The notes: generated by a model from the letters alone, not told the origin. A DNA stretch of 64,000 nt from a bacterium (GCA_021781215.1 JAJXXC010000002.1:16274-80273), one strand, 5' to 3'. Counted from the first letter of the stretch, positions 1 through 15,531 are shown. Numbers and translations: made by a program.

Positions 1-282
1 TCTATATAAATTTTCCCGATGATTATCAGAACGTCTATTAATGTATATTTTTCCACAATTGAAGTATCTTTTTAGATCTTCGAGCGTGTTCAAACTCTTC
101 TCACCTTGAGTAACGACGAATTCTGGAAATACTTGTACTCCAGATTTAGTTGTTGAGTTTTTGAAAATACTTACAGAAAAGCATCCTTCACCATCAGCAA
201 AACCTACTATCCACCACGGATCTAATCTTCCCTGCTGATTGTCTGCACGAGGCTGATTGTCACTTGATGCATAATGATTCAT
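1..282 (-). CDS. LAGLIDADG homing endonuclease encoded inside the 23S rRNA intron. Partial: the C-terminus runs off the window start.
   Basis: Minus-strand translation from the ATG (reverse complement of 280-282) gives MNHYASSDNQPRADNQQGRLDPWWIVGFADGEGCFSVSIFKNSTTKSGVQVFPEFVVTQGEKSLNTLEDLKRYFNCGKIYINRRSDNHRENLYR. The GFADGEGCF block is the LAGLIDADG dodecapeptide. The following ...VTQ....L..L..YF pattern is typical of I-CreI-like single-motif enzymes. There is no stop before coordinate 1, so the ORF is absent from the ORF track. Confidence 0.8.
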   Translation of the reverse strand, partial: MNHYASSDNQPRADNQQGRLDPWWIVGFADGEGCFSVSIFKNSTTKSGVQVFPEFVVTQGEKSLNTLEDLKRYFNCGKIYINRRSDNHRENLYR

Positions 283-419
283 CTATGGAATCATCATACC
301 ATAGTACAGCTCGATACTCAGATATTCCAGCATATAGCCAAATTTTCTTCTTCAAACCTCTCCTTAGAGGAAAACAGAAGGGAGTCTTACACTCCACTAA
401 AGCAGCTTAATTCTCTACC
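1..419 (-). mobile_element. Intron (probably group I) interrupting 23S rRNA at or next to E. coli position U1931-G1933. Partial: continues past the window start.
   Basis: The conserved 23S helix-69/70 sequence CCGTAACTATAACGGTCCTAAGGTAG (reverse complement of 420-445) is followed by AGAATTAAGCTGC... rather than the expected CGAAATTCCTTGTCGGG. The insert carries the homing endonuclease ORF. The upstream exon ends in GGT(AG), consistent with a terminal exon U for group I P1 pairing. Confidence 0.6.
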
Positions 420-2440
<2,021 letters not shown>

Positions 2441-2774: not shown

Positions 2775-2851
2775 TGGTGGAGATGCAGGGATTCGAACCC
2801 TGGACCCCCTGCTTGCAAAGCAGGTGCTCTAACCAGCTGAGCTACATCCCC
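2775..2851 (-). tRNA. tRNA-Ala (anticodon TGC), spacer tRNA
   Basis: Reverse complement: GGGGATGTAGCTCAGCTGGTTAGAGCACCTGCTTTGCAAGCAGGGGGTCCAGGGTTCGAATCCCTGCATCTCCACCA. Cloverleaf with anticodon loop CTTGCAA. Confidence 0.9.
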
Positions 2852-2870
2852 AAGCTTTTAATTTGTAGAA

Positions 2871-2947
2871 TGGTGGGCTTGCCAGGACTTGAACCTGGGA
2901 CCTCGTCATTATCAGTGACGCGCTCTAACCAGCTGAGCTACAAGCCC
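2871..2947 (-). tRNA. tRNA-Ile (anticodon GAT), spacer tRNA
   Basis: Reverse complement: GGGCTTGTAGCTCAGCTGGTTAGAGCGCGTCACTGATAATGACGAGGTCCCAGGTTCAAGTCCTGGCAAGCCCACCA. Anticodon loop CTGATAA. Confidence 0.9.
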
Positions 2948-3205
2948 GAATCTTGATCAAATTGATCTTACATATTGTATACAGTAATTGTCTTAAGGTG
3001 CAAATAGTCTTTAAAAATAAACAGACGCCCATTTTAGGCGTCTGTTATTCTTTAAAAATCTATGTAGTGCAAACAACGTCATAATCTTATATCAAACATC
3101 AAACTTAATCTGTCACCGAAGTGCTAAAGATAACTACTAAGCTTATATTAGTTATCCAGATCGACCATAGCTCTCGATTGCTCGAGGCTTAGTATACTCC
3201 CTAGA

Positions 3206-4675
<1,470 letters not shown>

Positions 4676-4771
4676 AAAAAGAAAACTGACGTTGTATTGC
4701 ACTACATAAATTTTTAAAGTTCAATATCGGTTCAAGAGACACCTCAATTAGAGCCCCAAAAGACTCCGATA

Positions 4772-9440: not shown

Positions 9441-12194
9441 CTATAAATCCTGTTTTATTACAGGACTATTATTGGCGCCGTCACCGTCTTCAACGACTGG
9501 TAAATTAGCACTAGTTGAAGAATTATTTCTTTGAATCTTAAATTCCTGCTCTTGTCGTGGCTGAACATTATCGTTTAAATTGCTGACGACACTGGATGTG
9601 CTCATGAAATTAGTATTGGTCGCAGGCGGCGTAAATTGTTTTCTTTTGGCCAACCATTCATCAAGAAAAGATGGAGTTGCTTTAGGCCTAGGAGACCCTA
9701 GCCCCTGGTCCTGCGTTGGCAACCCATTAAAAGGGTTGGGTGGTATTGGTGCTCCCAAAGTAGCCAACCGCTCTTCTATTTGTTGAGCAACTAAAGCCTT
9801 AGGACGACCATATTTTGTAGCCGATAATTGTTTTAATGCAACTATGAGTTCCTGGTTGGGGTCCTCTAACGGTGGAGGTACGCCCTCCATACTAAAAGCA
9901 TCGGTTGGCACACCATTGATTAATGTCCTGACAATACAATTATGGTTAGCAACCCTTAGTAAATCATCTTCATCGAATAGCGGTTGAAAATACTTTGCTA
10001 GTATCTGAACATCATTTTGGCCTACTCTAAATGATACAATCGTACCCATATTGCCGAATACTGCATCTCTAATTTCTTCTGACAGCTGTGTCGTAAATTG
10101 ATTAGCTACTATTAGGTTAAGCGCATATTTTCGAGCTTCTGACATTATCGTAGAGAAAGAATCAGTAGAAAAATTCTGAAACTCATCTACATACAAACAA
10201 AAATCCCTTCGATCCTTTTCCAGTATATCTGCTCTACTGAGTGCTGCCTCTTGAAACTTCATAACAAATATCATTCCGAGCAGCTGAGAGTTTAGTTCCC
10301 CGATTCTCCCTTTGCTAAGATTAACTATTAGTATTTTTCCTTCGTCCATTATTTTTCGCAAGTTAAATGAGCTTTTAGGTTGACCTATTATATTTCTCAT
10401 CATTTCGTTTTGCTGAAATGCGCCGAATTTACTTACAAACCAGCTCTTAAGTTCTCCAAAATCACTGGATCGTTCTGATTGGGGCACTTCCTTCTGCCAA
10501 AAATCTAAAACAGTTCTGTCTGTAACGTGTTTTAATTTTTGAGCCAAGAAATTCTTATCAATAAATAATTTTGGTATATCTATGAAAGTGCCTCCTTCCG
10601 GGTCAGCCATTACTGTCAGAGCTGCATTTCTAAACAAGTGTTGATATCTTGGACCAATAATGCCTTGATTGTGCGGATCATATAATTTCTCCAACATCTT
10701 AATGGCCTCTTGAATCAAAAAGTCTTTTCGGTCAGGGCTTTGAAATTCAAAAATATTAAGTCCTAGCGGAAACTCTGTCTCTGCTGGAGAAAAATAGATC
10801 ACATCTTCCGTTCTATGTTTAGGTACCATGGACAGTATTTCTTCCGCAACATCTCCGTGAGGATCTATAAATGCAAAACCTCGACCTGCATTCATATCTT
10901 GAAGCGCGAGATTTTTTAAAAATACGGATTTTCCGGTACCGGTCTGACCAACTACATAAATATGCCGTTGTCTATCAGGGAGACTGAGCATGACTGGTTT
11001 TTTTACACCTCTAAAAATATTATAACCAAGCAATAGGCCCGTTTCAGGCATATTCCTGGGTGCGTCTACTTGCTTAGAAGACTGTCTCTCAAGCTGTGCA
11101 GTAGGCGTATTTTCTCTATCGGGAAAGTGAAAAATAGTAGCTAGCTCCACTGAATTTAATATACTTTTATTATTCTCGGGTGGGAAAAATCTTAATATGT
11201 AGGCAGTAGTAAAGCTCTCCATGTCTCTAGACGGCGTATATTTAAAGCCATTCTTGCCGGGTGAGTCAAAAACCGCAAAACTAGCAACTAAATGGTTCAA
11301 AATAGCCTGAGATTTATCTAGCTTATCTGACGACGCCACTACTCTTATTAAAGACTCAAACCCTGGGTATTTAACCTTCTCTTCTATAGCATCGCTTATA
11401 GCCTGGTCGAGATTAGACGACTTGCTTTCGGATTTATCGCTTTTTTTATCAACTTCTGGATTAACCAGAATCTTATTTGCTATGGCTAGCGTTACGCCTA
11501 GTGCTGTCTTTTTCTTTTCACCACCCTTCCTTTTTGAGTTAGCATAATCAGACGCTGTTTTTCTCCAAGAAGTATTTGCTGGCCTAAGCAAGAACTGGAT
11601 TCCAGCCCCATCTTCCTTATCTAAGGAAGAAAATGAGTTTAAAATCGTTTGCATTGGGTCTCTTTTCAGCTCCTGATAAGTTGCTATTGGATATGCAAAT
11701 TGATTTTTTAATATTAGCTCGCCGCCCACAGTTGAACCTAACTTGCCGATTGGACTAAATAAATTATTATCCGGTACTTCTTCTAGCATAGAACTCGGGT
11801 AAGCACTTATGATTGCCTGTTTGACTATATCAACTAAGTCTATTGGGACTGATGCATAAAAATTAACAAAGCCCTTGGAGCCAATTATCTCAAAAGAGAA
11901 ATGTCTTTGCCCATAGATCCTTGACTTAAAATCAGTCTTTATAGTACTGGCAAGAATACTGTAAATGGTTTGTGCCTTTGAAATATTCTCGTCATCTACG
12001 TCCCTTATGTCTCTACCGTTAGATATGATGTCGTCACTAGATGGTGGTAGATTTATTAATAGAGTAACCATCTTTAAACCACGCTCATAGCTTTTTTGTT
12101 CACGAAGAATACGTCTAACTTGATAAAATATCACTGGTAGCAAAACAAAAACCACTAGGAGTACAAAGAACAGGTCTATGAATAAGGTCTGCAT
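9441..12194 (-). CDS. Membrane-anchored VirB4/VirD4-class (FtsK-HerA clade, AAA_10/TraG-like) P-loop ATPase
   Basis: 917 aa. N-terminal TM helix (FIDLFFVLLVVFVLLPVIFY) and a ~380-aa N-terminal domain. Walker A VVGQTGTGKS at ~aa 415, followed by FAFIDPHGD. Walker B CLYVDEFQNF. A conjugative-ATPase-like C-motif ANQFTTQL...VSFRVGQND. Low-complexity Pro-rich C-terminal tail. The Walker A position (~aa 415) favours a VirB4/TraC-type architecture over a T4CP. Confidence 0.6.
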   Translation of the reverse strand: MQTLFIDLFFVLLVVFVLLPVIFYQVRRILREQKSYERGLKMVTLLINLPPSSDDIISNGRDIRDVDDENISKAQTIYSILASTIKTDFKSRIYGQRHFSFEIIGSKGFVNFYASVPIDLVDIVKQAIISAYPSSMLEEVPDNNLFSPIGKLGSTVGGELILKNQFAYPIATYQELKRDPMQTILNSFSSLDKEDGAGIQFLLRPANTSWRKTASDYANSKRKGGEKKKTALGVTLAIANKILVNPEVDKKSDKSESKSSNLDQAISDAIEEKVKYPGFESLIRVVASSDKLDKSQAILNHLVASFAVFDSPGKNGFKYTPSRDMESFTTAYILRFFPPENNKSILNSVELATIFHFPDRENTPTAQLERQSSKQVDAPRNMPETGLLLGYNIFRGVKKPVMLSLPDRQRHIYVVGQTGTGKSVFLKNLALQDMNAGRGFAFIDPHGDVAEEILSMVPKHRTEDVIYFSPAETEFPLGLNIFEFQSPDRKDFLIQEAIKMLEKLYDPHNQGIIGPRYQHLFRNAALTVMADPEGGTFIDIPKLFIDKNFLAQKLKHVTDRTVLDFWQKEVPQSERSSDFGELKSWFVSKFGAFQQNEMMRNIIGQPKSSFNLRKIMDEGKILIVNLSKGRIGELNSQLLGMIFVMKFQEAALSRADILEKDRRDFCLYVDEFQNFSTDSFSTIMSEARKYALNLIVANQFTTQLSEEIRDAVFGNMGTIVSFRVGQNDVQILAKYFQPLFDEDDLLRVANHNCIVRTLINGVPTDAFSMEGVPPPLEDPNQELIVALKQLSATKYGRPKALVAQQIEERLATLGAPIPPNPFNGLPTQDQGLGSPRPKATPSFLDEWLAKRKQFTPPATNTNFMSTSSVVSNLNDNVQPRQEQEFKIQRNNSSTSANLPVVEDGDGANNSPVIKQDL

Positions 12195-15181: not shown

Positions 15182-15186
15182 AAATT

Positions 15187-15531
15187 GAGTCAGATTATCT
15201 ATAAGCCGGGTTCTGTTTTACTAATCATCTATCTAGCTCTATGGTCGCCCATAGAATCAAGCGGATAATCGATATTACTAGCGAGAACTAGTCGTAAACG
15301 ACGTGTAATATCTCCTTGCAGCGATTAGGGTTTACCACTACCAGAAGTCACCTACTGGCATTGTGGGCTCTTACCCCACTCTTTTCACCCTTACCATTGA
15401 ATGGCGGTATTGTTTCTGTGACACTTTCCCTGAGATCACTCTCGGTTGCTGTTAGCAACTAATCTTCTCTTTGCTGCCCGGACTTTCCTCTTACCAATTG
15501 AATGATAAGCGATTAGCCAATAATCTGACCA
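15187..15531 (-). ncRNA. rnpB: RNase P RNA (bacterial type A-like, ~345 nt)
   Basis: The minus-strand transcript contains GAGGAAAGTCCGGGCAGC (P4), CACAGAAACAATACCGCC, GGTAAGGGTGAAAAGAGTGGGGTAAGAGCCCAC (compare E. coli GGUAAGGGUGAAAGGGUGCGGUAAGAGCGCACC) and GCAAGG. The 3' block ACAGAACCCGGCTTATAGATAATCTGAC pairs with the 5' GGTCAGATTAT (P1). Not in the ORF track. Confidence 0.8.

Follow-up and report, generated by a model that had tools for sequence, protein, structure and literature searches.

At the left end of the window, by which we mean the whole stretch of 64,000 nucleotides that was analysed, a 23S rRNA gene on the minus strand gives way to sequence that is not rRNA before the stretch ends. 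What has been inserted here, and how might it behave? An earlier note, made from the sequence alone, had proposed that the gene is interrupted around U1931 by an intron carrying an "I-CreI-like" LAGLIDADG homing endonuclease. Our analysis leads us, with a probability of roughly 0.9, to regard window positions 416..1 as the 5' part of a group I intron of the mobile kind, which interrupts the 23S rRNA gene of a small-genome Saccharimonadales (CPR) bacterium directly after U1931.

The 23S rRNA junction and its closest counterpart

The Rfam LSU_rRNA_bacteria alignment carries maximal posterior probability up to ...CGGUAACUAUAACCGUCCUAAGGUAG (CCUAAGGUAG; GGCGGUAACUAUAACCGUCCUAAGGUAG) and is forced and of low confidence beyond that point, which bears out an interruption around U1931 followed by non-rRNA sequence. 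The last exon base, U1931 in E. coli numbering, falls at window position 417, and positions 416..1 are non-rRNA; for this numbering, helix 69 of E. coli, with the positions at which it is known to be modified, served as the ruler. The 5' exon ends in ...CCUAAGGU both in the window and in its closest relative, L001, and the 3' exon would be expected to start with AGCGAAAUU (AGCGAAAUUCC). An ambiguous "AG" permits three placements of the junction, a single one of which leaves U as the last base of the 5' exon and G as that of the intron; because this is the only placement canonical for group I introns, the site is L1931. The earlier note had located the right region, whereas the bracketed "AG" that it counted to the 23S rRNA represents the first two intron bases, which mimic the start of the 3' exon. 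The 23S string that it quoted, CCGTAACTATAACGGTCC, is the E. coli sequence; helix 69 of the window reads CGGTAACTATAACCGTCC, with a compensatory swap of the pair 1909-1921 from C-G in E. coli to G-C. The swapped pair lies at window positions 427 and 439 (minus strand), and position 1921, about 10 bp from the insertion point, may fall inside the recognition site of the endonuclease; the G-C variant also occurs in at least 120 intron-less metagenome alleles.

The insertion lies exactly between E. coli 23S positions U1931 and A1932, as given by the 5' junction in the window and by the 3' junction in L001 and 68 other loci. Altogether, an insert of 590–980 nt exactly between CCTAAGGT and AGCGAAATTCC (L1931) was found in 69 of the 88 family loci that were fetched. 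L001 is a contig of 1,084 nt from another sample that encodes a protein of 162 aa (P0001); its insert is flanked by both 23S exons, so that the contig contains a complete element. It is 98.1% identical to the window in the 23S exon and 92% in the intron, with about 95% in the untranslated 5' part of the intron and 95% in the protein. Its insert comprises 751 nt and ends in ...CAACUAG with a terminal G, after which the 23S rRNA resumes exactly with AGCGAAAUUCCUUGUC (AGCGAAATTCCTTGTC; AGCGAAAUUCCUUGUCAGGUAAGUUC). The 3' exon had been predicted to lie beyond the window edge, with AGCGAAATTCCTTGTC named as the sequence whose absence there would speak against an intron; L001, by proxy, resumes with precisely this sequence.

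The window carries about 55% of the intron, the 3' 45% being located beyond the edge. In a scan of GTDB species genomes for the window's own continuation, identities did not exceed 69%; JGI metagenomes contained no exact copy of a 31-mer specific to the window, and a protein database search gave no relative more than 95% identical to the ORF fragment. As this continuation was not found in these collections, we infer the 3' part of the intron from L001.

The junction belongs to an rRNA operon at the left end of the window (minus strand), with the 16S rRNA gene at 4677..3205, tRNA-Ile and tRNA-Ala at 2947..2778 and the 23S rRNA gene starting at 2436; gyrA and gyrB adjoin the 16S rRNA gene directly upstream. 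In domain I of the 23S rRNA (window 2013..2149, minus strand), the sequence is longer than the bacterial LSU model at two places, by about 36 nt near model position 282, where the extra bases enlarge a hairpin loop, and by about 69 nt near model position 312. The 5' exon thereby comes to 2,020 nt compared to 1,931 in E. coli; these short expansions are similar to the insertions without introns that have been reported as typical of rRNA in Saccharibacteria (PMC11270868). The window also contains ordinary housekeeping RNAs, namely a class A bacterial RNase P RNA (15186..15528, minus strand, 254 bits) and eight scattered tRNA genes. Beside gyrB, an ORF of 917 aa (9441..12194, minus strand) shows weak matches to HerA/AAA and TraG/TraD C-terminal domains and may encode a coupling-protein-like ATPase.

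RNA elements and the catalytic core

For folding of the 5' segment of the intron, the 134 nt in front of the ATG were taken together with 8 nt of the exon. The fold contains P1, P2, a two-tier P2.1 and a hairpin before the start codon (Table 1), with a z-score of −3.2.

Table 1. Coordinates of the 23S rRNA exon, the intron and the endonuclease gene in the window.
Feature	Position	Strand	Remarks
23S rRNA 5' exon	417..2436	−	Corresponds to E. coli 1–1931; Rfam LSU_rRNA_bacteria, 1,573 bits; junction set by comparison with L001
Group I intron at L1931, 5' 416 nt	1..416	−	92.1% identical to positions 1–416 of the L001 intron; rest past window edge
P1	397..423	−	Exon CUAAGGU (423..417) pairs with guide GCUUUAG (403..397); loop 416..404; recovered in minimum-free-energy fold
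Possible P10 guide GCU	404..406	−	Directly 5' of P1 guide; complementary to AGC, the first three bases of the 3' exon
P2 hairpin GGAGU-GUAAG-ACUCC	381..395	−	From fold
P2.1 hairpin	347..380	−	Outer stem CUUCU/AGAAG, inner stem CCUCU/GGAGA (five pairs); from fold
P3 5' strand UUUGGC	337..342	−	Partner GCCAGA after P7, outside window
Conserved P element UAUAU-GCUGGAA (J3/4 and P4 5' strand)	325..336	−	Nearly invariant in all related introns
Hairpin CUAUGG-(10 nt)-CCAUAG	283..304	−	Directly before start codon; from fold
LAGLIDADG homing endonuclease gene, first 94 codons	1..282	−	About 58% of the 162 codons in relatives; start codon 282..280
LAGLIDADG motif IVGFADGEG	184..210	−	Presumed catalytic Glu32 kept

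P1 places a U1931·G wobble at the splice site. In the fold, the exon bases CUAAGGU and the first AG of the intron pair together with CUGCUUUAG, the AG being matched by CU at 405..404. All seven P1 pairs are formed in most of the 64 distinct related introns, and compensatory changes keep the pairing in relatives (GCCAUAG as the guide for exon CUAUGGU, GCUUUUG as that for CAAAGGU). For the possible P10, three to four of four positions pair in roughly half of the related introns; the 3' exon of the window copy is past the edge. Among relatives, the P2 stem covaries, as read from the sequences (GGAGU/ACUCC, GAGG/CCUC, GGGG/CCCC, AGGGU/ACCCU), as does the hairpin in front of the start codon (CCUAGG/CCUAGG, GGUAUACU/AGUAUGCC). 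A two-tier P2.1 of different sequence is also present in L009, L016, L020, L027 and L048 and is missing in many other family members, in which P1 runs straight into P3.

Covariation is most extensive in P3, which forms six of six pairs in about 58 of these 64 introns and does so with more than 15 combinations of strand sequences (e.g. UUCGGC/GCCGAA, UUCUGC/GCAGAA, UUUAAC/GUUAGA, CCCGGC/GCCGGG); in these introns the partner hexamer sits four bases after a conserved CCUCAGAGACUACA block. Downstream of UUUGGC follows the block UAUAUGCUGGAA, nearly invariant among related introns, in which UAUAU-GCUGGAA resembles what we take to be the group I consensus P element. RNAalifold on mini-introns from which the ORF had been deleted recovers only P3, a 4-bp pairing between CUGG and UCAG (the latter in the CCUCAGAGACUACA block) and P8. 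The modelled pairing of CUGG in the P element with this UCAG is one candidate: GCUGGAA has two possible partners, CCUCAG or the UUCUGG just before it, which are inseparable given that both strands are nearly invariant. Placement of the ORF by hand and with RNAalifold puts it between the P and R elements, that is, probably inside the P4–P6 domain, and gave nothing finer.

The Rfam Intron_gpI model found no match in window positions 1..700 at E-values up to 10, which is not evidence against an intron because the core lies beyond the window edge. Among the relatives, L002 and L004 score 52.4 bits (cut-off 50), and L001 reaches 32.2 bits (E = 3.7e-6) over the R and S elements, P8 and P9, which is below the gathering threshold. 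Relatives carry classic R (UCAGAGACUACA) and S (AAGAUAUAGUCC) elements as well as P8 and P9, and the introns of L001, L002, L005 and L009 all end in G. The U·G-containing P1, the covarying P3 and the Intron_gpI matches in relatives together uphold the group I assignment. By analogy with these relatives, the window copy is expected to continue with P7, P3', P8, P9, a terminal G and the 3' exon, and to be capable of self-splicing; the case for splicing and homing is built on conservation, covariation and homology to tested enzymes.

In several family members (L019, L020, L027, L013, L022 and others), some of the more distant ones among them, the intron has no terminal G at the boundary deduced from exon homology (e.g. 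...UAAUA, ...AAAUA). Either their splice site is shifted by the ambiguous AG, or they are without a canonical omega-G, the lack of which has been reported for one Coxiella 23S intron.

Introns at L1931 are well documented, with tabulated lengths of 654–700 nt and an endonuclease of 162 aa in four of six cases (Thermotoga, S. lividus; PMC1995217). Those of Thermotoga measure 698–700 nt and encode 162 aa (Nesbo & Doolittle, 2003, as tabulated in PMC1995217), those of Synechococcus 666–675 nt and 162–167 aa, and that of Simkania 654 nt and 143 aa (PMC1995217); the family extends to algal organelles and Acanthamoeba mitochondria (PMC1995217). The Thermotoga intron, whose enzyme in T. naphthophila is I-TnaI (PDB 5GKK), shares the site with the element described here, is of similar length (698–700 versus about 751 nt), and its single-motif family enzyme has exactly 162 aa, whereas its host is a hyperthermophile of the Thermotogae rather than a CPR Saccharimonadales bacterium and protein identity is about 40%. 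Compared by description, the Simkania, Synechococcus, green-algal organellar and Acanthamoeba introns occupy the same site with 654–675 nt and single-motif enzymes of 143–167 aa (PMC1995217). The Simkania intron differs in that it is reported to be unspliced, according to the title of a 1999 paper by Everett et al that PMC11270868 cites, so that the presence of an intron does not guarantee splicing. P2 and P2.1 intervene here between P1 and P3, whereas PMC1995217 describes the cyanobacterial L1931 intron that it depicts as having no P2; this is the only structural difference that we saw from published L1931 introns.

The endonuclease gene and its kin

An ORF that starts with ATG at position 282, with an in-frame TAG just upstream, remains open for 94 codons up to the window edge, and, being cut off there, does not appear in the mechanical ORF list. 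Its translation contains GFADGEGCF, as the earlier note had stated, and VTQGEKSLNTLEDLKRYF, to which the "VTQ...L..L..YF" block given there corresponds with only approximate spacing. Against Pfam LAGLIDADG_1 (PF00961), the 94-aa fragment scores 57 bits (cut-off 23.1, E = 4e-15), a match far beyond chance that confirms the LAGLIDADG identity of the ORF. D30, G31, E32 and G33 are invariant in the 30 family members sampled, which have a mean column identity of 75%. Glu32 is presumed to be the catalytic acidic residue by analogy with I-OnuI and I-LtrI relatives, for which PDB titles name Glu mutants, one of them "at catalytic site". The 26 base differences between the ORF and its counterpart in L001 amount to 18 synonymous and five non-synonymous codon changes; judged from this ratio, the ORF is under purifying selection.

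The protein search returned more than 569 homologues, nearly all of 162 aa with one LAGLIDADG_1 domain; among the best 120 of these, nearly all have 157–163 aa and one domain, the exceptions being shorter and of fragment length. The closest, P0001, is 95% identical over the shared 94 residues. Its AlphaFold model (pLDDT 78, pTM 0.74) has low confidence in the N-terminal motif helix. Foldseek comparison of this model with the PDB gave I-TnaI as best match (E = 3e-11, TM 0.67–0.74, 40% identity), followed by single domains of I-PanMI, I-LtrI, I-OnuI and I-SmaMI, the top hits having a probability of 1.00. Sequence searches agree: I-TnaI matches the profile with E = 6e-37, and I-ShaI, taken from Fig S7 of PMC11270868, is 39% identical over 136 residues (E = 4e-30).

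"I-CreI-like" holds for the architecture, with one motif, about 160 aa and a dimeric type, and not for kinship, since the nearest enzymes in sequence and predicted fold are I-TnaI, I-ShaI and domains of the I-OnuI family. The closest I-CreI-family match to the fragment is I-CvuI (E = 0.002, 21 bits) and I-CreI itself is not among the best 60 matches listed, and we rejected I-CreI as a family assignment. I-CreI likewise resides in a 23S group I intron, in the Chlamydomonas chloroplast, and forms a homodimer, but at another insertion site (L2593) and with marginal sequence similarity. The highest PDB sequence scores were obtained for I-OnuI, I-LtrI, I-PanMI and I-SmaMI, each of whose two domains aligns with the whole protein at 31–38% identity; these, however, are two-motif monomers of about 300 aa from fungal mitochondria, where their setting is protein-coding or rps3. 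I-ShaI of Ca. Shapirobacteria, from the CPR insertion 23IS7 (~1931), comes from the same 23S region of a CPR host and is a single-domain LAGLIDADG_1 protein, and it has been shown to form dimers and to cleave the site at which it is inserted (Tsurumaki et al, 2024; PMC11270868). It differs in belonging to another CPR phylum, in its length of 173 aa and in its reported 42% identity to I-CeuI (PMC11270868).

In L001 (731–832) and at the corresponding place in relatives, the endonuclease ORF ends (...TMNRRK...) within, or directly next to, the conserved ribozyme block that immediately precedes CCUCAGAGACUACA, and many members of the family seem to have an ORF that continues into this part of the core. 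The shared bases would then be constrained by the protein as well as by the RNA, a situation noted for cyanobacterial introns by Haugen et al (PMC1995217).

Host, spread and competing explanations

The 23S 5' exon is 89.5% identical over 2,030 nt to a Candidatus Saccharimonadales MAG (L009), the next best being L005 and L006 with 83.9%, and non-CPR loci have 71–74%; the 16S rRNA is 90.5% identical to that of the groundwater contig L005, which shares the gyrB–gyrA–rRNA order. Going by these rRNA comparisons, the host is a member of the Saccharimonadales (CPR, Patescibacteria). A scan of one genome per species identified at least 543 genomes that encode relatives. Within the CPR these include Saccharimonadales, Parcubacteria, Microgenomates-type phyla, Uhrbacteria and Magasanikbacteria, and relatives were also found in MAGs labelled Actinomycetota, Acidobacteria, Planctomycetota, Bipolaricaulota and Gammaproteobacteria. 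Some host labels look doubtful, as short rRNA contigs are easily mis-binned: a contig of 1,119 nt binned as "Nanoarchaeota archaeon", one of 1,941 nt binned as Rikenella microfusus, and several "uncultured Gammaproteobacteria" MAGs that also carry an L1931 intron (these doubts concern L027 (JBBSWR010000007.1), L012 and L016/L018/L019).

In the CPR, 82% of 23S genes have been described as carrying insertions, and LAGLIDADG_1 genes cluster at positions 1917, 1931, 1952, 2593, 2604 and 2657 (Tsurumaki et al, 2024; PMC11270868). The earlier suggestion that rRNA introns with homing endonucleases are a hallmark of CPR bacteria agrees with their frequency in the CPR generally, but not with the Saccharibacteria, in which 64 of 66 rRNA insertions are short and contain neither intron nor endonuclease gene (PMC11270868). 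The window copy belongs to the minority of Saccharibacteria with an intron, as do several other Saccharibacteria MAGs in the species scan. Further insertions were seen in relatives downstream within the 23S rRNA gene: in L002 (9511–10041) and L003, another LAGLIDADG ORF of 176 aa follows at a distance of about 1 kb, and the 23S rRNA gene of L005 and L006 spans 4,452 nt (L005 7529–11980). Additional introns may thus be present in the unseen 3' part of the window's 23S rRNA gene.

Over the 5' 400 nt of the intron, L002 and L009 are 79.6 and 79.1% identical to the window, and over the full length 74.6 and 72.8% identical to L001, whereas the 23S rRNA of L002 is far more distant from that of the window (76% compared to 89.5% for L009). 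Intron similarity hence does not closely follow host 23S similarity, a weak hint of horizontal spread. Tentatively, and with considerable doubt, these identities, together with intron-less alleles at 85–90% 23S identity, could suggest an L1931 sub-lineage bearing P2 and P2.1 that moves horizontally among Saccharimonadales and more distant CPR bacteria instead of being inherited vertically.

In the mechanism that we propose, the internal guide GCUUUAG would pair with the last seven exon bases to form P1, with U·G at the cleavage site; the intron would be excised by two guanosine-initiated transesterifications, P10 aligning the exons. The gene, probably inside the P4–P6 domain, would give rise to a single-motif LAGLIDADG enzyme of 162 aa that would act as a homodimer and is predicted to cut intron-less 23S genes around position 1931, whereupon repair would copy the intron in (homing). 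Natural candidate targets are intron-less alleles (GGTAACTATAACCGTCCTAAGGTAGCGAAATTCCTTGTC) with identical exon sequence in 23S genes 85–90% identical to that of the window, so that possibly susceptible targets exist among relatives.

Could the element be a real L1931 intron that is no longer spliced or mobile, a decaying relic either retained in the rRNA, as reported for Simkania, or with an endonuclease broken past the edge? As the visible part amounts to no more than 55% for the intron and 58% for the ORF, a frameshift further downstream in the window copy is possible, the core of L001 scores below the Rfam threshold (32 versus 50 bits), some family members have large insertions or shortened ORFs (e.g. 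L041, L047, L050, L060), and a cycle of gain, decay and loss is the expected fate of such elements (PMC1995217). We nevertheless consider decay improbable, given that the visible ORF is intact, with the synonymous excess noted above and the presumed catalytic Glu kept, that P1 with its U·G, P2, P2.1 and the P3 strand are intact and 95% conserved relative to L001, and that L001 itself has a complete ORF, a terminal G and conserved R and S elements.

Two further explanations question the nature of the insert or its existence, and both appear very unlikely to us. Many CPR rRNA insertions are unclassifiable as introns (PMC11270868), and together with the missing Intron_gpI match in the window this might point to another kind of intervening sequence with a LAGLIDADG gene, such as an RNase III-processed IVS or an archaeal-type bulge-helix-bulge intron. 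Neither of these accounts for the exon–guide pairing of P1 with U·G at the junction, for the covariation of P3 or for relatives with canonical R and S elements and Intron_gpI matches; moreover, L1931 is a classic group I site (PMC1995217), and known IVS sites lie elsewhere in the 23S rRNA (PMC11270868). The location of the feature at the very edge of the window, in an rRNA operon and hence at a notorious break point of metagenome assemblies, could in turn indicate an artefact, with a 23S fragment chimerically joined to unrelated intron-bearing reads at the contig end. Against such a join, the same junction recurs base for base in independent assemblies from other samples (L001, L002–L009) and in dozens of named genomes, and the adjoining exon is 98% identical to that of L001.

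A mobile group I intron at L1931 is accordingly our preferred reading, and as such the element is real but ordinary, a further case of a well-documented and widespread family. For annotation, this means that the 23S rRNA gene of the host genome is split and that the insert should not be called a host protein-coding locus; rRNA-based binning or phylogeny should mask it. A Saccharimonadales example is added to an L1931 family known in Thermotoga, cyanobacteria, Simkania, organelles and many CPR phyla. Because the enzyme family is large and well conserved, natural variants of a meganuclease directed at one fixed 23S target could be drawn from it, a property generic to the family and not specific to this copy. 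Should horizontal spread prove true, the Saccharibacteria, reported to be nearly intron-free, would be a group that is currently being invaded.
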